A stretch of 64,000 nt of DNA from a virus (IMGVR_UViG_3300034196_000151), one strand, 5' to 3'. Positions 1 to 63,053 are shown, counted from the stretch's first letter. Notes: generated from the letters alone by a model not told the origin. A program made the numbers and translations.

Positions 1-189
1 ATCTGAGTGCGACTCATTGAGATTATTAGCTAAACTAACAATATCAATAAAAGTAGGATCAGCGGTTTTAGTGGCGGCTTGATAATAAGTTACTGCCACA
101 ATGAGAATCATTGCAAAGAGAGCAACAACCATTAGGGGTTCAATTAATGGAACATCGCCAGCCATTTTTTTTATATTTTTAATATTCAT
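1..189 (-). CDS. hypothetical membrane-anchored protein (3' end runs off window)
   Basis: ATG at 189 preceded by AAGGTG SD; N-terminal hydrophobic segment GDVPLIEPLMVVALFAMILIVAV. Confidence 0.4.
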   Translation of the reverse strand, partial: MNIKNIKKMAGDVPLIEPLMVVALFAMILIVAVTYYQAATKTADPTFIDIVSLANNLNESHSD

Positions 190-3147: not shown

Positions 3148-3280
3148 ATCGGTCCCCTTAAAATATTACGGACATAATATTTGATGGCAAAAAAAAACAT
3201 TGTCCGTTTTTAAATCATAATTGTAGTCTTTTATTTGATTTTGTCAACATCATCCGGTCTTAAATTAGTCAATAAAATGA

Positions 3281-22807: not shown

Positions 22808-22884
22808 TGGTGGGACTTATAGGACTTGAACCTATGACCTGCCGATTATGAGTCGGACGCTCTAACCAACTGAGCTAAAGTCCC
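22808..22884 (-). tRNA. tRNA-Met/Ile (anticodon CAU)
   Basis: Minus-strand GGGACTTTAGCTCAGTTGGTTAGAGCGTCCGACTCATAATCGGCAGGTCATAGGTTCAAGTCCTATAAGTCCCACCA: 7-bp acceptor, D and T arms, anticodon loop CTCATAA, encoded CCA. Confidence 0.85.
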
Positions 22885-23173: not shown

Positions 23174-23258
23174 TGGTGCCCGGTGCCGGACTCGAACCGG
23201 CACTCCTTGCGGAAAGGGATTTTAAGTCCCTCGTGTCTACCAATTTCACCAACCGGGC
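23174..23258 (-). tRNA. tRNA-Leu (anticodon UAA), type II with long variable arm
   Basis: Minus-strand GCCCGGTTGGTGAAATTGGTAGACACGAGGGACTTAAAATCCCTTTCCGCAAGGAGTGCCGGTTCGAGTCCGGCACCGGGCACCA; loop CTTAAAA; encoded CCA. Confidence 0.85.
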
Positions 23259-28731: not shown

Positions 28732-28883
28732 AATATTAATTCTCCGTTGTTTGAAGCGTCTATTATAGCACTTACAGCCTTTTTTATCAACGAAAGTTTT
28801 CATAAATCAACCACTTGCAATCAAAAATAACAGGAGTATACTTATAAATTAGATAGCAAGCTAACAATATAAAAGGTGATAGA

Positions 28884-29042
28884 ATGAAGAAAGAAAATGT
28901 GAAAAAAGAAATGACCGGGTTGGTGTTGAGTGTCTTTATGGGATTATTTGGTACCGGGGCCATTGCAGAAGAAAAGACCAGCACCAGCGATATAAAAAGC
29001 GAAGCGACCACTCAGGTAGATGTTAAAAAGCTTCAAAAGTAG
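28884..29042 (+). CDS. 52-aa small membrane/secreted peptide, plus strand
   Basis: AAAAGGTGATAGA SD before ATG; hydrophobic LVLSVFMGLFGTGAIA. Confidence 0.4.
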   Translation: MKKENVKKEMTGLVLSVFMGLFGTGAIAEEKTSTSDIKSEATTQVDVKKLQK

Positions 29043-29108
29043 TAGAAAAAGCTTGTTTTTGTTGTCTGTTTTAACTATAATAGACCAACAAACCAAGAGG
29101 CTTTAATC

Positions 29109-29318
29109 ATGGCAAAGAATAAAGTAAACGAACATGTGATTACAGAAGAAATGCTGAACAGCTTTGAAATCGGTAAACCGATTGCTCGTTTTGGTTTTTT
29201 TGTCAATTTGATTTTTATCTGGGTCGAAGAAGGTCGAGTAGTCTTTGCGGATCAAGTTGGTAATGTCAAAACAGAACCTGTGTGGCTTTTTTTGAAGCAC
29301 GCCCGAGTCGCTAAGTAG
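29109..29318 (+). CDS. hypothetical protein, plus strand
   Basis: 69 aa; TTGTTT-17-TATAAT promoter at 29053-29081; terminator at 29337-29363. Confidence 0.45.
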   Translation: MAKNKVNEHVITEEMLNSFEIGKPIARFGFFVNLIFIWVEEGRVVFADQVGNVKTEPVWLFLKHARVAK

Positions 29319-29336
29319 TTTTTCCAACAGTAATAA

Positions 29337-29363
29337 TAAAAAGCCCGCAGAAGCGGGTTTTTT
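29337..29363 (+). terminator. plus-strand terminator after 29109..29318
   Basis: aaaaaGCCCGCagaaGCGGGtttttt. Confidence 0.6.
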
Positions 29364-29398
29364 ATTGCTTAAAATTATGAATATTTTGTAGAAAAAAG

Positions 29399-29427
29399 CT
29401 TGTACTCGCCAGTAGTATTTGATATTA
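29399..29427 (+). promoter_or_regulatory. plus-strand promoter TTGTAC-17-TATTAT for the candidate sRNA
   Basis: cTTGTACtcgccagtagtatttgaTATTATagc. Confidence 0.5.
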
Positions 29428-29433
29428 TAGCTT

Positions 29434-29612
29434 TGGAGATGCGGGATGAGAAAAAACTCATCCTTCAGGGTTGTTCTTTAGCATCCGATGACCATTCAGA
29501 GGCTCTGCCGACATGGTAGCTCGTCATACGCTGGTGATGTATGATGGAAAACCGCACCGCATAAAAGGAGTCCAATCTTCTTTTTGGGAGAGGCTAAATG
29601 CCTCTTTTTTTT
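29434..29612 (+). ncRNA. candidate ~180-nt small RNA with own promoter and terminator
   Basis: TTGTAC-17-TATTAT promoter at 29399-29427; internal 7-bp hairpin GGATGAG-aaaaaa-CTCATCC; terminator gagaggctaaatgcctc plus T8 at 29586-29612; no ORF of convincing length. Confidence 0.45.
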
Positions 29613-29649
29613 CGTCTTGAATAAAGTAAAAAAGCCACCGAAGTGACTT

Positions 29650-30366
29650 TTATAATTTTAGTTTCGCAGGGTCGATAAGCCCTATCAAATAAACAAACTC
29701 TTTTTTACCCGCAATCTCACTGCTTTTAAAATCGGCTGAGAAGGTTGTGTAGAATTTTTTGTAATCCGACAGTGATAAGTACCCTTGTGTAGCGGTCAAC
29801 GACTGGTTGAATGTCTCCACTGATTTTAAGGGGAACAAATTAACCACTTCAACAATTTGATTGTTTTTAAGGTCGATGATTTTAAGAGCATCAAGATCAT
29901 TAGAAACTTCTTTCAACGTTGAATAATCATGTGAAACAAGAGCTTTCGCAAACTTAATACCAATAGGAGATTTGTTAAAACTTGGATTTAGTTTAACCGT
30001 TTCATCATATAAAGCACTAATAGGCTGATACATAAACTCATCAGTAGATTTATACTGAAAAGCAATCATAATCAATGGCAAAATTGACACTGCCGTAAAA
30101 AACACCTTCTTCTTCAAATATGTTTTATTGATCCAATGAAAAACTGTTTGTAAGACAATGAACGCATAAACAAATAAAAAAGGGATTAGAAAGTAAACAG
30201 AAGTTTTATCGACACTAAAATTAGCAAACTTTGCATAGTGATATTCACTCGAAACTGCAACATGCTGATTAATTAATTCTACCGCGATATTGGTGCAGAA
30301 ATACATGACACCTAAAACAAAAACACTAGACAACAACACAATAAGTAGATCACTTATTTTTTCTTT
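29650..30366 (-). CDS. multi-pass membrane protein (AT-rich)
   Basis: Start MKEKISD with GGAG SD; several TM helices. Confidence 0.5.
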   Translation of the reverse strand, partial: KEKISDLLIVLLSSVFVLGVMYFCTNIAVELINQHVAVSSEYHYAKFANFSVDKTSVYFLIPFLFVYAFIVLQTVFHWINKTYLKKKVFFTAVSILPLIMIAFQYKSTDEFMYQPISALYDETVKLNPSFNKSPIGIKFAKALVSHDYSTLKEVSNDLDALKIIDLKNNQIVEVVNLFPLKSVETFNQSLTATQGYLSLSDYKKFYTTFSADFKSSEIAGKKEFVYLIGLIDPAKLKL

Positions 30367-30462
30367 CATGATAAACTCCAATTCAAATTTTACAAATCGT
30401 CTCATGAAATAAAAAAAAGTCAACAAAAAACCCGCCGAAGCGGGTCTATTTAGGTATTCTTA

Positions 30463-33649: not shown

Positions 33650-34144
33650 CTACACTTCAAGAGCTGCTTTTTCTCGTTTAATTTGGCGTTCTTCACGTTT
33701 TCGGGAAATCACTTTGGGATCTCGACGGTCACGGTGTTTTTGTCTTTTAGCGGCTTTACGCTCATAAAAATCGACCATTTGCAAAGCCAATTCATCCAGC
33801 GTAATGTCTTGATGCCCTTTTGCTGTGTTGCAATGACAGCACATTGGTTGCAAGTTTTCAATGTCATTGCTGCCACCATTCTTTTTGGCGATAACATGAT
33901 CAACCGTCATCATAACCAAATCATCAGTAAACAAATCCCAGTTATGTTTACCATTGATAGCCGTCGAGAAAATCAAACGAGTGCCCACATTGGTGCAATT
34001 AGGCGTTACGCAAGCAAACCCCTTGTGAAAAAACACCTTCAAGCGTTTATGAGCCTTGAACGCTTCAATTCCAGTAGCTGGGCGTTCACGAATGAACGTG
34101 TATTTGCAAGGTTTGATAAGATCGCCTTTTTTTAGAGGTGTCAT
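33650..34144 (-). CDS. HNH homing-type endonuclease
   Basis: VDHVIAKKNGGSNDIENLQPMCCHCNTAKGH HNH motif plus upstream Cys cluster CVTPNC. Confidence 0.75.
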   Translation of the reverse strand: MTPLKKGDLIKPCKYTFIRERPATGIEAFKAHKRLKVFFHKGFACVTPNCTNVGTRLIFSTAINGKHNWDLFTDDLVMMTVDHVIAKKNGGSNDIENLQPMCCHCNTAKGHQDITLDELALQMVDFYERKAAKRQKHRDRRDPKVISRKREERQIKREKAALEV

Positions 34145-34154
34145 TTTTTATCCC

Positions 34155-34640
34155 CTAGACTGATTCGGCCAGTTCTTCTTGCCCGCGACGTTCAGCTCTG
34201 CGTTGTTCTTTGGCGAGTTTCTTTTCAATCTTTCGAGCTTCCTTATGCTTGGCATGTTCAACCACCAACACAGCCAATTCATCAAGAGTAATGTCTTGAT
34301 TATGTTTAATCGTGTTGCAAATCGAACACATAGGTTGCAAGTTTGCAAGTTCGTTGTTGCCACCGTTAGCCTTGGCAACAATATGATCAATGTTGATCAA
34401 AACAGCATCATCTGTATAAACATCCCAATGTTCACCGCCTTGAACATCACGGGAGAAAATGAGGCGAGTGCCAACATGTTTGCAATTAGGCGTGACACAT
34501 GCCACACCTTTATTCACAAAGACTTTAAGACGACGATGATTTTCAAACATCTGCAACGCAATCAACCCACCTTCGTAAACATACGAAAAATTACAGCCGG
34601 GGATTTTGTCACCTTTGTTAAAAGTTTTCATAACGGTCAT
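34155..34640 (-). CDS. HNH homing-type endonuclease (tandem paralog)
   Basis: IDHIVAKANGGNNELANLQPMCSICNTIKHN; ~55-60% identical to 33650..34144. Confidence 0.75.
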   Translation of the reverse strand: MTVMKTFNKGDKIPGCNFSYVYEGGLIALQMFENHRRLKVFVNKGVACVTPNCKHVGTRLIFSRDVQGGEHWDVYTDDAVLINIDHIVAKANGGNNELANLQPMCSICNTIKHNQDITLDELAVLVVEHAKHKEARKIEKKLAKEQRRAERRGQEELAESV

Positions 34641-46138: not shown

Positions 46139-47260
46139 TTACTCGGGGATTTCGACTTGTTTACGAGCAAACACCATGATAGCCGCTTGCTTGTAGTCGA
46201 TTTCAGCACCGGAATACTTGCTAATCAAGACATGCAGCAAGAGCGGTGCAACTTCCTTCGCTTTACGGGCATAATCACCACGTTCCAACCCTTTATGTTC
46301 TTCGTGGAAAGATTCCACAGTGCGAACAAGGTAATGATAGCTTTTACGGGCATAGTCTTCGACTTCATCCAAACGAGCCAGAATTTCGGCCAGTGGGAAG
46401 TTATCGCTGTGTGTCCGGTAGTGATACAGGGAACGAATTTCATCCAGAATTTCATGAAGGGTCGCTTCATAAATCACCTGACGTTCTTTGGAACGGTCTT
46501 GAATGTTGATAACCGCCGACATTTTCAGGTAAGGAATGGTCTTGACTTTGTACATATCAGGGCCGATTTCAATCACATAACCTTCGATATCTGGGTCATT
46601 AACGTTGATTTCGTTAACGGGGATACGCTTCACCAGATGGGCAGCAATGACCGGATATTCTGCGGCAAATTCTGCCGAACGAATGTCCACATAAGCCCCT
46701 GTGTTCATGTCGCGGGCTTTCAACACATGAACTTCGTAGTCAGTGTATTCGATGAACACACGGTTTTTCGGCGTGGTCAGTTCCAAGTCAACCGAAACAC
46801 CTGTGCGGGTCAGCCGCTCAACGTCTGAGTGCAATTCTGGACTGATAGACTGTTCAACAAGGCTGTAATCAGCAAACGTAGGCTTCTTTTTGCTCTTGTA
46901 GTAAATCGTATCATTGATCGGAGAAATATAGCTGGTGAGCAACGAGCCATCCGGTTTCAGATAAGCGTGGTCGGCTTCTTCTGGCTTCACCTTTTGCGTT
47001 TCAGGGGTTTCGCCCAAGGAAAAGAATTTCTGCATAGGCAATGCCACCAGCAAAGGTTCAGTGCCACCCATGTAGAACATCACACCACGGCAATCTTTCG
47101 CACCCGGAAGCTTGAATTCGGAGTGTTTCGGAATGTCATAGTTGAAGACACGGTAAGTGCCGCCGTCAACTGCCGACACTTCATCACGGTATTTGAAAGA
47201 ACCCGGATTCGTGACCAACAGGTTCATGAGTTGTGCATACAGTTCTTGTTGATAGGTCAT
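46139..47260 (-). CDS. rnlA: RNA ligase 1 (Rnl1/RnlA family)
   Basis: 373 aa (T4 Rnl1 is 374 aa); adenylylation motif AYLKPDGSL (K-x-DG); GTGGAGA SD; TATAAT at ~47294. Confidence 0.7.
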   Translation of the reverse strand: MTYQQELYAQLMNLLVTNPGSFKYRDEVSAVDGGTYRVFNYDIPKHSEFKLPGAKDCRGVMFYMGGTEPLLVALPMQKFFSLGETPETQKVKPEEADHAYLKPDGSLLTSYISPINDTIYYKSKKKPTFADYSLVEQSISPELHSDVERLTRTGVSVDLELTTPKNRVFIEYTDYEVHVLKARDMNTGAYVDIRSAEFAAEYPVIAAHLVKRIPVNEINVNDPDIEGYVIEIGPDMYKVKTIPYLKMSAVINIQDRSKERQVIYEATLHEILDEIRSLYHYRTHSDNFPLAEILARLDEVEDYARKSYHYLVRTVESFHEEHKGLERGDYARKAKEVAPLLLHVLISKYSGAEIDYKQAAIMVFARKQVEIPE

Positions 47261-47316
47261 GTAAATCTCCACATTAAGCATATTTGAATGTATTATATCA
47301 AAAACTGATTTTTAAT

Positions 47317-48228: not shown

Positions 48229-49356
48229 CTAGGCTTCGACAGGTGGCGACAAATCGCCCAACTCAATCTGTTCCAAAGACCAGTCAACCAGATGGTTTTT
48301 AGCGTAATACGACAGGTAGTCGTTTTTCATGCCGCGAAGCAAGCACATTACAAAGCCAAAATGTGGATGGCCTTTAAGTTTGATCGCCGCCGACTTGAAG
48401 TCAAGCCCTTGGAACTCTGCCGCAATGTCGCTCACTTCTTTATCCAACGCTTCAACCGAAGATTTGATAGCGTCATTGATACGATAGATGTTGCTCAAAT
48501 CAGCCGTTGGGGAGTTCAACGACAAGTAAGCAATGTAGTCGTCCAACTTTTCTTCAACCACTAAGCGAGCAATATCACGCTCACGAACAAAACTAACCGC
48601 ATGGTGCAAATTCATATACCATTTAGTTTTGATTTTGATCATTTCACCGTTAGCGAACTGAATAACGTAGCCTTCAATTCCTTCAACCGTGTTCAACGAC
48701 TTCAACAGCGAAGCCAAATCAAATTCTTCACCAAACAGCGGCTTGTTGACCGGAATATCAAACAACAACGCCAGTTGCTCTTTTTCAGCAGGCATCAAGT
48801 AATCACCTGTGATGTTGTGGCGAACGTGAAGAAGTGTCATGTTTTCTTCGTCATAACGCAAAACGATACGATGTTTTGGCGAAGTGAATTCAAAAATAGG
48901 GGTCAGTTGTGCCTGAGAGCAATATTTAGTGAACTCGTAGTATTTCTGGTTGTTCGATACAAAGCCTTCTGCAGAAACAGCCACATCCGATTTGAAGGAC
49001 TTCTTGGACTTGGCAAAGAATTCACCGTTGAACAGCCCTGTGGTGATCATGGAACCATCCATTTTATCAAACCCGGCCACCATCTTGTTCCAATCCAAAA
49101 CGGCTGGCTGGACTTCTGCACGCTCTGCAAGGTTGAAGAACTTGTGCAACGGACGGGACAAGATTTTACCATCGTCGGCAAACGTAATACCGCGAGCTTC
49201 TTTTTCGACCGGAGTGTTAAAAGAATCACCATTGCTGATGTTGTAGCAAACGATGTTCGCCCCGTTATCCTGCTTGTTAACAGAGATATAGGCACGATCT
49301 TTGATATGGGGAAGCATATCATCAAGGGTTTCAATACGCGGGAAGATGCTAGACAT
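48229..49356 (-). CDS. RNA ligase 1 family, second paralog
   Basis: 375 aa; FDKMDGSM (K-x-DG) and shared ARG(I/V)(T/M)F, P(L/M)(H/Q)KFF, KSKK blocks with 46139..47260. Confidence 0.65.
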   Translation of the reverse strand: MSSIFPRIETLDDMLPHIKDRAYISVNKQDNGANIVCYNISNGDSFNTPVEKEARGITFADDGKILSRPLHKFFNLAERAEVQPAVLDWNKMVAGFDKMDGSMITTGLFNGEFFAKSKKSFKSDVAVSAEGFVSNNQKYYEFTKYCSQAQLTPIFEFTSPKHRIVLRYDEENMTLLHVRHNITGDYLMPAEKEQLALLFDIPVNKPLFGEEFDLASLLKSLNTVEGIEGYVIQFANGEMIKIKTKWYMNLHHAVSFVRERDIARLVVEEKLDDYIAYLSLNSPTADLSNIYRINDAIKSSVEALDKEVSDIAAEFQGLDFKSAAIKLKGHPHFGFVMCLLRGMKNDYLSYYAKNHLVDWSLEQIELGDLSPPVEA

Positions 49357-61259: not shown

Positions 61260-62996
61260 CTACCCCGCCCTGAAGGACGAAGTTTCTTGGGTTTTTGAAA
61301 CCTTTCCCAATCGCTGACGTTCATTGTCAACTTCAAACAAAGCGGTCAGCTTCACTCGCACGGTTTCTCTTTTCATTTTGGATGGACTGTACTGCCCATC
61401 TTTTAACAGGTGAAAAGTGAGACGAAGAACTTCTTCGGTTATTCTGTTTCTTACATTTTTTGCTGCATTCTGATCAGCGTCTTCTTTATGACCACAAAAA
61501 TTACAATGAAAACTTCTTCCTTGTCTGACTGTGTGTTCCACACAGTGACACTTTGAACAGGTTTTCGATGTATAACTTGGGGTGGTCAAATGAACTCGAA
61601 TGCCTTTATTATTCGCTTGTTCTTGAAACCAATCTTTAATACTTGATAATCTCAATAAGCGAATAAGCTTTGAATATTTTATATTTAATGTTTCATCTTT
61701 GATGAAAGAAGCTTTACATTGTGAAAGATTGAGATCTTCTAATACAATGTCGGTTATTCCATCATCTATTAGGCTTTTTAATGTCTTTGATATAAGTTCT
61801 TTAAAGTGAAATTCAACACCACCTAATAGCTTATTAAATTGGGTTTGTTCATAGGTTGTTAATTGTTTGAACCCTTTCTTTTCAAAAGATTGTAGAGACT
61901 TTACAACCTTTTGAAGATATTCACGATTATAATCAATGGCTATTTCTCGATCATGAAAAGCAATGGTGCAAAAGTTTGAAGCAACATTAATATCAATACC
62001 GCACACAGCTTTTTTATCAATGATACTGTCTTTTTCTAATGGTTTGAAGTATTCTTTTTCATCTTCATAGGTTAAGCCAATTTCAATTCTATTTTTTCGA
62101 TTAAGACGAACCGTATGAATAGCGTCAAGATCAAAATCATTAATATCGCCATGATATTTAGGATTGAAAGCCAATGGAACATGGATATGTTCCTTCCCAA
62201 TCCTAAAATTATACCAATATTTGTACTCATTTGTTTCATCAACATGAAGATAAGAATGTTTAGTTTGTCCGATTTTAGGTATTTTCATATAAGACCCAGT
62301 TGAAAACACAATCGGTGATTTCATGGATTGTAACATTCGTATCTGTTTTCTAAGTAAAAGTGCTTTAATTCTATCCCAAAGGAAAACTTCAACACCATCT
62401 GTCGTAAAATGTCTTTTAGTTCTTAATGCATTAAGTGTTGAATTAAAATTCTCTATGTCTTTAATTTTTTTTGGATTCTCTTCACTTTCTTTATGTGCTT
62501 TTAAAACAGAATCAAGCATAGAAGAATCAACATAGATTAACCAATTTGACAAATTGGTTAATGCAGTAGTTTTGTGAATCACTTCTGTTTTTTTAATATC
62601 ACCTTTTACTGCAATAACTTCACCCACACTGTTTGTAACTTTTCGCTTATATCGAGTGACTTTATATTCTTTTTGAATGACAAACTTTTGATTGTCGGTG
62701 AGTTTATCTACCCAATTAGAGTAAAAATCAATAATTTGTTGGTACATTTTTTGAACTTCCCAAGAATACAATTCAGGGCAATTGTGTTGTTTCGCATGGG
62801 AAATAAGTGTATTTTTAGAAGTCGAAGAAAGAAGTGAAAGTTTATGTTCAAAGACATATTGAGAAATTTCATTTTTAAGGGATTTAACAAAAGAAAAATG
62901 CTCAACAAAACGCTCTGTCTTCTTCGAATTGACAATCGAAGAAGCAGAAATACGTTTAGTTTTAATCTTTTTTTTGTCAGAGCTACCGTAAGCCAT
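61260..62996 (-). CDS. tnpB: TnpB/Cas12-like RuvC plus zinc-finger protein (IS200/IS605 OrfB superfamily; putative RNA-guided nuclease)
   Basis: 578 aa from ATG 62996 (AGGAAA SD); RuvC-I AVCGIDINV, RuvC-II ITDIVLEDLNL, Zn ribbon CSKCHC...CNFCGH followed by RuvC-III EDADQNAAKN; ~31% GC; the track's 12 extra N-terminal residues are a TTG read-through of the promoter. Confidence 0.75.
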   Translation of the reverse strand: MAYGSSDKKKIKTKRISASSIVNSKKTERFVEHFSFVKSLKNEISQYVFEHKLSLLSSTSKNTLISHAKQHNCPELYSWEVQKMYQQIIDFYSNWVDKLTDNQKFVIQKEYKVTRYKRKVTNSVGEVIAVKGDIKKTEVIHKTTALTNLSNWLIYVDSSMLDSVLKAHKESEENPKKIKDIENFNSTLNALRTKRHFTTDGVEVFLWDRIKALLLRKQIRMLQSMKSPIVFSTGSYMKIPKIGQTKHSYLHVDETNEYKYWYNFRIGKEHIHVPLAFNPKYHGDINDFDLDAIHTVRLNRKNRIEIGLTYEDEKEYFKPLEKDSIIDKKAVCGIDINVASNFCTIAFHDREIAIDYNREYLQKVVKSLQSFEKKGFKQLTTYEQTQFNKLLGGVEFHFKELISKTLKSLIDDGITDIVLEDLNLSQCKASFIKDETLNIKYSKLIRLLRLSSIKDWFQEQANNKGIRVHLTTPSYTSKTCSKCHCVEHTVRQGRSFHCNFCGHKEDADQNAAKNVRNRITEEVLRLTFHLLKDGQYSPSKMKRETVRVKLTALFEVDNERQRLGKVSKTQETSSFRAG

Positions 62997-63015
62997 TAGT
63001 TTTCCTATAAAAAGT

Positions 63016-63053
63016 CTTGCTAAATTATACAATGTATTCGATAATAAAGCAAG
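63016..63053 (-). promoter_or_regulatory. tnpB promoter TTGCTT-17-(TG)TATAAT flanked by a 13-bp imperfect inverted repeat
   Basis: -10 at 63024-63029, -35 at 63047-63052; arms tCTTGCTaaATTAT (63015-63028) and ATAATaaAGCAAGc (63041-63054). Confidence 0.5.

Follow-up and report, generated by a model that had tools for sequence, protein, structure and literature searches.

A predicted structured small-RNA gene in a novel huge phage, carried as an accessory cassette

The virus sequence IMGVR_UViG_3300034196_000151 was analyzed as a single stretch of 64,000 nucleotides (nt), referred to here as the window, and our subject is a short interval on its plus strand that is predicted to be transcribed into a small RNA. 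The interval lies between a gene for a 69-amino-acid (aa) protein on the same strand and a gene for a 240-aa predicted membrane protein on the opposite strand. Between these two genes we find a sigma-70-type promoter (29400..29428), the predicted RNA itself (29435..29612; about 171-178 nt here and 157-179 nt in alignments of its relatives), and an intrinsic terminator (29586..29612). An earlier note on this DNA had proposed a self-contained plus-strand small-RNA unit instead of an untranslated region (UTR) or a gene, flanked by a plus-strand two-gene unit (28884..29318) and a minus-strand membrane-protein gene and running opposite to about 95% of the window. The surroundings and orientation are as that note described them, and comparison with relatives upholds its proposal: the promoter-terminator unit is kept in 10 variants, its helices covary, pairing is biased toward one strand, no coding frame is conserved, and the whole block is absent from three relatives. 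On these comparative grounds the region is very probably a real non-coding RNA gene.

Relatives and natural deletion of the unit

Syntenic loci (L002-L011 and L015-L023) were taken from the contigs of flanking-protein homologues, and a scan for the pattern of the conserved core added L012 from JGI metagenomes and L014, a 672-bp contig, from GTDB genomes. Homologues of the 240-aa membrane protein form six clusters at 70-93% identity, and those of the 69-aa upstream protein form eight. An exact-protein look-up with the 69-aa product returned a single entry, L001, which is an identical 1.5-kb fragment of the window, and the same kind of look-up with the 240-aa product gave no record. IMG/VR yielded no relatives in protein-based scans with both flanking proteins or in three DNA-pattern scans. 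The syntenic loci, which come from independent metagenomes, provide 10 distinct versions of the element. One divergent relative, L012 (Ga0308158_10000001), is found right at the beginning of a contig whose reported length is 1,859,102 bases. This length is far above the sizes of known phages, and what it represents could be a chimeric assembly, a concatemer, or an integrated copy.

Three relatives (L007, L015, and L016) lack exactly the block that runs from the promoter to the terminator. In the window the block is bounded by an 8-nt direct repeat, AAAAAAGC (an A-tract plus GC), with its left copy just 5′ of the -35 element (29392..29399, plus strand) and its right copy at 29628..29635 (plus strand). 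The three relatives are missing one copy of AAAAAAGC together with the sequence between the copies, a total of 236 nt, and in L007 and L015 the deletion junction falls inside the repeat. The terminators of the 69-aa gene and the membrane-protein gene are only about 90 nt apart in these loci. Loss by deletion between the 8-nt repeats is the parsimonious account, because the element occurs in more divergent lineages and the flanks of L007 are nearly identical to those of the window, and we infer that the absence of the cassette reflects such a loss and not a recent insertion. The element is an accessory one that some lineages can do without, and the membrane-protein gene persists unchanged where the element has been deleted. 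As a separate observation, the cassette-less relatives L015 and L016 carry a 902-aa Cas3-like gene with HD nuclease and helicase domains (1-154, minus strand), about 3 kb from the 69-aa gene, which suggests a phage- or element-borne CRISPR-Cas component.

Promoter and terminator

The -35 hexamer TTGTAC was read from the sequence at 29400-29405 (plus strand), and a 17-nt spacer ending in TGa joins it to the -10 hexamer TATTAT at 29423-29428, so that the extended -10 element (TGaTATTAT) occupies 29420-28. The same hexamers and spacing had been noted before at 29399-29427; the sequence and spacing are right and the coordinates are one base too low. The site is missing from the output of a generic promoter scan, since TTGTAC agrees with TTGACA at only three of six positions, and promoter-like sites are not significantly enriched in the region (14 found vs 9.7 ± 2.6 expected from shuffles). 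The promoter is weak evidence on the window alone and becomes credible because it is conserved in relatives. In its favor, a looser scan finds numerous promoters of the same extended -10 style, TTGnnn-N17-(TGn)TATAAT, across the window. All 11 loci with upstream sequence have a -35 element beginning TTG, a 17-nt spacer ending in TGn, a -10 element of the form TAnnAT, and then 6 nt followed by GG at the start. The spacer is otherwise variable in sequence among the variants, save for an A/T-rich tract leading into TGn. In L017, an insertion of about 280 nt lies upstream and the -35 element is different (TTGCAT), and the promoter geometry is still the same. This pattern of conservation is the one expected of a working promoter and supports that assignment. 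The sequence AAAAGCTTGT is common to the small-RNA promoter and the promoter of the 69-aa gene at 29047. The L017 insertion separates the 69-aa gene from the small RNA and also holds a tRNA-like gene (3182-3255, minus strand) that ARAGORN cannot type, giving a two-base anticodon call. A minus-strand promoter-like site, TTCTCA-17-TATAAT (29452-29424; 10/12 matches), overlaps the small-RNA promoter and the 5′ end of the RNA; its -10 element is weakened to AATAAT in several relatives and the site is not conserved, so it is probably fortuitous.

We placed the start of the RNA at the G located 7 nt past the -10 element (near 29435) and its end within the U-tract of the terminator. That terminator, which the earlier note had read as GAGAGGC-UAAAU-GCCUCU followed by U8 at 29586-29612, is present in the sequence as the stem-loop GGGAGAGGC-UAAAU-GCCUCUUU with its U-run on the plus strand and is listed by a terminator scan as well. 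All 10 variants have an unchanged hairpin core GAGGCUAAAUGCCUC and U-run; variation is confined to the two outermost stem pairs, where G·U is replaced by A-U. A second terminator hairpin stands 20 nt past this one. Immediately before the terminator, folding predicts hairpin P5 (AAAAGGAG-UCCAAU-CUUCUUUU; 29563..29584, plus strand), which is variable, has a U-rich 3′ arm, and sequesters AAGGAG in the predicted fold. A hairpin occupies the P5 position in seven of the 10 variants, with sequences that differ between two groups; the L012/L014/L019 group has a different hairpin there (AAAAAAG...CUUUUUU), and the L003/L008/L010 group has none. In proteobacterial small RNAs, the module that binds Hfq is a Rho-independent terminator whose tail has 7 U or more and which follows a single-stranded stretch or hairpin rich in U. 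The 3′ end of the predicted RNA resembles this module, in that 10/10 variants have 8 or more U in the tail and the invariant terminator hairpin core and 7/10 have a U-rich tract directly 5′ of the terminator, and by this likeness it may bind Hfq.

Conserved structure and the invariant core

The secondary structure was derived from RNAalifold and from explicit pair counts on the alignment of variants. Three helices are indicated by covariation. The 5′ domain (29438..29485, plus strand) consists of helix P1, formed by 29438-42 with 29481-85, which encloses hairpin P2 and a conserved UUCAGGGUUG. Hairpin P2 pairs 29443-50 with 29457-64 on the plus strand around an A-rich loop and is the 7-bp hairpin GGATGAG-aaaaaa-CTCATCC of the earlier note, found here as GGGAUGAG (29443-50), AAAAAA, and CUCAUCC(U) (29457-64). 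Hairpin P4 (29521..29547, plus strand) has a 10-bp stem, 29521-30 with 29538-47, and a loop of 7-9 nt that contains an invariant UGGU. This UGGU could pair with an invariant ACC(R) at 29556-59, for which the sole support is one-sided A/G variation.

Substitutions in these helices preserve pairing. P1 has one compensatory pair (U-A to C-G), P2 has two compensatory pairs in addition to G-C/G-U changes, and in P4 four of the 10 pairs carry compensatory changes such as C-G to G-C and A-U to G-C. Across the three helices, seven pairs have changed on both sides, including U-A to C-G, G-C to A-U, and C-G to G-C. Standard pairs fill 99.5% of the alignment cells, in comparison with 37-59% when the 3′ partners are slid by 1-3 columns. 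The observed covariation score was reached by none of 500 shuffles, and the count of seven doubly changed pairs was reached by two of 500. Canonical pairing drops from 99.5% on the sense strand to 86.4% on the complementary strand, and the plus strand is identified as the RNA strand because many of the pairs are G·U and are valid only there. Single-sequence folding gives -56.1 kcal/mol and z = -2.4 for the plus strand and z = -1.8 for the minus strand.

Between P1 and P4 lies a near-invariant central core, UAGCAUCCGAUGACCAUUCAGAGGCUCUGCCGACAUGGUAGCUCG (29478..29522, plus strand), in which 41 of 45 columns (91%) are invariant across seven genomes. By comparison, only 22-23% of third codon positions in the flanking genes are invariant, and about half of all positions there, with the flanking proteins being 52-93% and 62-80% identical among relatives. 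Pairs internal to the core are possible (ACCAU/AUGGU and CAG/CUG), and the core holds no variation with which to probe them. From this degree of conservation we propose that the core is the functional surface of the RNA.

Coding potential

The interval had earlier been described as having no convincing open reading frame (ORF), with best candidates of 11-26 codons. The first statement stands, as no ORF in the region has protein-type conservation among the relatives; the sizes were nearly right and missed a 35-codon ORF that runs through the terminator (29513-29620) and an 18-codon ORF at 29488-29544. In L008 and L010 the ATG of ORF5 (26 codons, 29439) has become ACG; L006 has a frameshift in ORF5 and has lost the start of ORF12 (11 codons, 29446). 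The 35-codon ORF79 (29513) is frameshifted by a 1-nt deletion in L008, L009, and L011, which is not a sequencing error because it recurs in three independent assemblies. ORF79 stops after 18 codons in the L012/L014/L019 group, and its end point is very different among variants. Its substitutions fall mostly at codon positions one and two, tracking the compensatory changes in P4. Most gene callers place no gene here; genes called over ORF79 exist in L003 (49 aa) and L008/L009 (64 aa), and those of L003 and L008 reach the antisense of the neighboring gene.

ORF54 (29488-29544; MTIQRLCRHGSSS..., 13-18 codons) calls for closer attention. It has no Shine-Dalgarno sequence before its start (UUUAGCAUCCG-AUG), and the start abuts the foot of P1. 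Eight of its nine synonymous third positions are invariant in comparison with the 22-23% background (binomial p ~6e-5, calculated by hand), and sequence conservation reaches 5′ of the ATG. Because the synonymous sites are frozen, selection appears to act on the nucleotides, that is, on the RNA, and we conclude from the alignments that this is so with a small residual chance of a dual-function RNA. A type I toxin-antitoxin system or small hydrophobic peptide gene was rejected: the candidate peptides are hydrophilic and the frame is not conserved, nor do relatives keep the minus-strand promoter-like site (29452-29424) from which an overlapping antisense RNA could start.

Comparison with known RNA families

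An Rfam scan, which the earlier note had suggested, assigned the element to no family at gathering or at permissive thresholds with three homologues (the window, L012, and L003). Rfam 15, with its models for small RNAs, riboswitches, ribozymes, tRNA/tmRNA, 6S, SRP, Y-RNA-like RNAs, and CRISPR repeats, gives only two hits in the window that pass the gathering threshold, namely tRNAs at 22.8-23.3 kb. The weakest likenesses, to ar9 (RF02343), Hrs12 (RF02630), and sraA (RF02029), score 13-23 bits against gathering scores of 45-70; membership in these families was rejected as far below threshold, with the similarity confined to the terminator hairpin and U-tail and generic in nature. ARAGORN found no tRNA or tmRNA at 29.4-29.6 kb, and the Rfam tRNA and tmRNA models did not match. 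Visual inspection had suggested 4.5S RNA, box C/D or k-turn motifs, and a hammerhead core, and all three likenesses were dropped since the matching Rfam models are silent. No paralogues turned up when 149 kb were searched with nhmmer and covariance model R1, each genome having a single copy. The E. coli genomes searched contain no similar DNA, and plasmids gave chance matches only. The element is not a member, by sequence or structure, of any described family.

Two functional assignments were also rejected. A leader or riboswitch for a downstream gene is not tenable because there is no co-oriented gene downstream. A guide RNA (omega-RNA, crRNA, or tracrRNA) for the TnpB/Cas12-like ORF of the window was set aside, given that the nuclease is 31.6 kb away, no repeat array is present at 57-64 kb, and the element has no second copy.

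Genomic setting

No nucleotide match to the window was found among GenBank phages (50,697 records). The gene content of the window includes two Rnl1-type RNA ligases, a NUDIX protein, two tRNAs, and a TnpB/Cas12f-like ORF. The best protein relative of one ligase (43% identity) is from the Ralstonia jumbo phage RsoM2USA (344 kb), and homologues of the flanking genes reside on metagenomic contigs of 320 kb and 678 kb. Because of the missing GenBank match, the jumbo-phage relative, and the size of these contigs, we assign the window to a novel jumbo or huge phage of an uncultured clade. The promoter, Shine-Dalgarno, and terminator style of the window looks proteobacterial, as far as such signals can suggest a host. 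A Bacteroidota label, stemming from the binning of L014 in a Bacteroidota metagenome-assembled genome, was discarded as the 672-bp contig is too short to trust and the label conflicts with the sigma-70/Shine-Dalgarno style of the window.

The upstream neighbor is a separate plus-strand transcription unit (29109..29366) comprising the 69-aa gene and a bidirectional terminator (hairpin 29344-29357). The convergent neighbor (29630..30372, minus strand) consists of the 240-aa membrane-protein gene (29650-30372) with its own terminator (29651-29630). No gene flanking the small-RNA unit has a match in Pfam or PHROGs. In every element-bearing locus, no plus-strand gene lies downstream of the unit and the next gene is convergent. 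Local G+C content is 45-46% vs about 36% in the flanks of the unit. Two further tiny units lie upstream of the small RNA (28815-29366, plus strand), each with an apparent sigma-70-type promoter of its own and encoding a 52-aa protein with a signal-peptide-like N-terminus and the 69-aa protein. The three plus-strand units oppose the surrounding minus-strand genes and form a small island of independent units, and the promoters of the small RNA and the 69-aa gene have GAAAAAGCTTGT in common. The local change in GC skew is explained by the presence of these three units.

Several observations elsewhere in the window are worth recording. A 590-aa ORF (61260-63032, minus strand) has a Cas12f1-like TNB domain (Pfam PF07282, E = 1.7e-15), which makes it a TnpB/Cas12-like nuclease in a huge phage, and tblastn shows it to be weakly similar to Thermus phage transposases of the IS200/IS605 type. 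Paralogous genes for T4 Rnl1-type RNA ligases are found at 46139-47281 and 48229-49356 (both minus strand) with 1 kb between them, the second being the one whose product is 43% identical to the RsoM2USA protein. The phage also encodes a tRNA-Met (CAU; 22808-22884, minus strand) and a tRNA-Leu (UAA; 23174-23258, minus strand), and the two ligases together with the tRNA genes suggest an RNA-repair module. Finally, two ORFs of 161-164 aa (33650-34640, minus strand), a few kb from the element, stand where relatives have tandem HNH endonuclease genes. One HNH gene is near the element in L003 and two are in L002 (759-1740), L005 (629-1624), and L008 (1334-2315), differences in number that look like copy-number variation of homing-type endonucleases.

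Interpretation

The unit combines promoter and intrinsic terminator signals of its own, no co-oriented downstream gene, compensatory structure, and no conserved coding frame, which are the marks of a small-RNA gene. Since no plus-strand gene follows it, there is nothing for it to regulate in cis, and the RNA quite probably acts in trans. Phage morons, best known from lambdoid phages, are independent promoter-gene-terminator cassettes located between phage genes. Our best overall explanation, to which we give a probability of roughly 0.5, is that the locus is a structured small-RNA gene, carried as a moron-like accessory cassette of a huge-phage clade, that encodes a trans-acting base-pairing riboregulator. 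A riboregulator is the first choice because the 3′ end of the RNA resembles the Hfq-binding module; that the RNA is specifically a base-pairing regulator of the Hfq type is a tentative proposal. In such a scheme, host sigma-70 RNA polymerase would start at the extended -10 promoter near 29435, probably early in infection as with the other sigma-70-type promoters of the window, and would stop at the intrinsic terminator to give an RNA of about 157-179 nt. The RNA would fold into a scaffold of P1, P2, and P4, as covariation indicates, joined by P5 in most variants. These helices may present the 45-nt domain, whose conservation is plain in the alignment, and the RNA would then act in trans, most likely by pairing with a host transcript or with a phage transcript encoded outside the window.

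A number of results weigh against this explanation. The earlier note had envisaged base-pairing targets among host or phage mRNAs, and complement and duplex-energy scans of the 64-kb window gave no convincing phage mRNA target. The window contains no perfect complement of at least 12 nt; complements of 10-11 nt are mostly A/U-rich or lie outside the invariant core. When 162 translation-initiation regions were scored, their duplex energies stayed within the range of shuffled cores (-41.3 vs -38.5 ± 3.3). Moreover, at 45 nt the invariant block far exceeds the usual length of a small-RNA seed, and a protein-binding or tertiary-structure domain fits it at least as well. The likeness to an Hfq-binding 3′ end does not extend to the L003/L008/L010 group, which is A-rich and has no U-rich tract before the terminator. 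ORF54 is intact in all 10 variants, and the covariation comes from only 10 related sequences and is indicative, not a formal R-scape test.

These points bear unequally on the alternatives. The same 45 nt are frozen in predicted stems and loops alike while the scaffold helices covary, as would be expected of a protein-binding or decoy RNA in which the core is a site or mimic for a host or phage protein (a defense nuclease, RNA chaperone, polymerase, or repair enzyme), the helices serve only as scaffold, and there is no mRNA target. The lack of target complementarity within the window agrees with this idea, as does the clean loss of the accessory element in some lineages, which is often seen with counter-defense genes. 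Nevertheless, the RNA has no known protein-binding motif or family match, the permissive Rfam hits being terminator-like noise; no partner gene is consistently linked and the neighbors have no recognizable domains; and repeated GGA or other sponge-type motifs are absent. On balance we consider a protein-binding or decoy RNA a serious rival, though less likely than a base-pairing regulator. An extension of the idea, in which the invariant domain on its covarying scaffold is a new RNA module that binds and neutralizes or hijacks a host factor as an RNA-based device for counter-defense or takeover, is slightly less likely again; if true, the lineages that lost the element cleanly would be those whose hosts do not have the factor.

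The remaining alternatives carry little weight. Because transcriptional riboswitches are built in the same way, with an intrinsic terminator behind a conserved folded domain, the domain could sense a factor and allow conditional read-through past 29612, yielding a transcript antisense to the 240-aa membrane-protein gene, with which the element is convergent at every locus that has it. The sequence AGAGGCU is even present twice, once within the core (29498-29504) and once within the terminator's 5′ arm (29589-29595). This repeat is, however, identical and not complementary to the arm and is broken by a G-to-A change in L008 and L010; inspection of the alignment showed no anti-terminator complementary to the terminator arm, and no riboswitch model matches. 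Read-through would also meet the second terminator hairpin 20 nt downstream, and the membrane-protein gene is unchanged where the element is deleted, all of which renders a conditional terminator improbable. A micro-protein or dual-function RNA, in which the core encodes a 13-18-aa peptide MTIQRLCRHG(S/N)S(S/L)... (29488-29544) or the ORF at 29513 is translated, is distinctly improbable. The intact 29488 ORF, whose sole substitution in the first 10 codons is synonymous (AGG to AGA), speaks for it, as do the loosely similar N-terminus of the 29513 ORF (MVAxHxxVxYxG) with AGAGG 10 nt upstream and the ORFs called in L003 and L008/L009. Yet the first ORF has no Shine-Dalgarno sequence, starts against P1, has frozen synonymous positions and conservation 5′ of its ATG, and encodes a C-terminus that shifts with the compensatory changes in P4, and the second is frameshifted in three relatives, short in the L012/L014/L019 group, open through the terminator in the window, and substituted mostly at codon positions one and two. 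A DNA-level element with no functional RNA product (a cluster of binding sites, a replication origin, or a recombination site) would account for the very high nucleotide conservation of the core and its position at a local switch in transcription direction. It is strongly disfavored and scarcely credible to us because covariation keeps RNA helices whose many G·U pairs fix the RNA strand; in addition, the promoter and terminator are kept as functional signals, no iterons or repeats were found, and the three plus-strand units account for the GC-skew change. We return, then, to the trans-acting RNA: most likely this is a new family of phage small RNAs that act as a trans-acting regulator or decoy through the invariant core.

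Relation to known phage RNAs and significance

Small RNAs of a comparable kind are known from prophages, with DicF as an example. The lambda RNA LPR1/PreS is a phage-encoded small RNA that acts in trans and works with Hfq (bioRxiv 10.1101/2024.10.31.621285). The element described here is likewise a short phage-encoded RNA, predicted to be non-coding, with an intrinsic terminator and poly-U tail, accessory status, and a proposed action on host transcripts. It differs in having no sequence or Rfam relationship to such RNAs and in being a multi-helix RNA of about 175 nt with a 45-nt invariant domain instead of a short seed. Unlike the small RNAs of lambdoid prophages, it comes from an uncultured huge phage that is apparently lytic. 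Candidate non-coding RNAs of virulent or jumbo Pseudomonas phages include phiKZ candidates with a 5′UTR or 3′UTR origin, and ncRNA1 and ncRNA2 of PAK_P3 (PMC10914365; PMC8244752). Those candidates are mostly UTR-derived or processed and have no start site of their own (PMC10914365), and small RNAs have been predicted for few virulent phages only (PMC8244752). The present element shares with them its origin in a large, apparently virulent phage and its place in a poorly explored class, but its promoter and terminator are conserved and its own, and it has no co-oriented gene next to it. The support is also of a different kind, transcript data for the phiKZ and PAK_P3 candidates and covariation here. 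As with morons, the unit is self-contained, is oriented against the surrounding genes, and is cleanly present or absent among close relatives. In contrast to morons, its cargo is a structured RNA and not a protein, and parsimony favors loss by deletion over recent insertion.

Little has been charted of the small RNAs that virulent and huge phages encode, and the candidates, described for few virulent phages, are mostly UTR fragments of no known function (PMC8244752, PMC10914365). The locus described here is a rare case in which comparative genomics alone delimits a phage RNA gene by its promoter, structure, terminator, natural deletion variants, and an exceptionally conserved domain. Although the family is small so far, with 10 variants from one phage clade, it yields the seed alignment and the covariance model of a new RNA family and a concrete handle on how huge phages may manipulate their hosts at the level of RNA.

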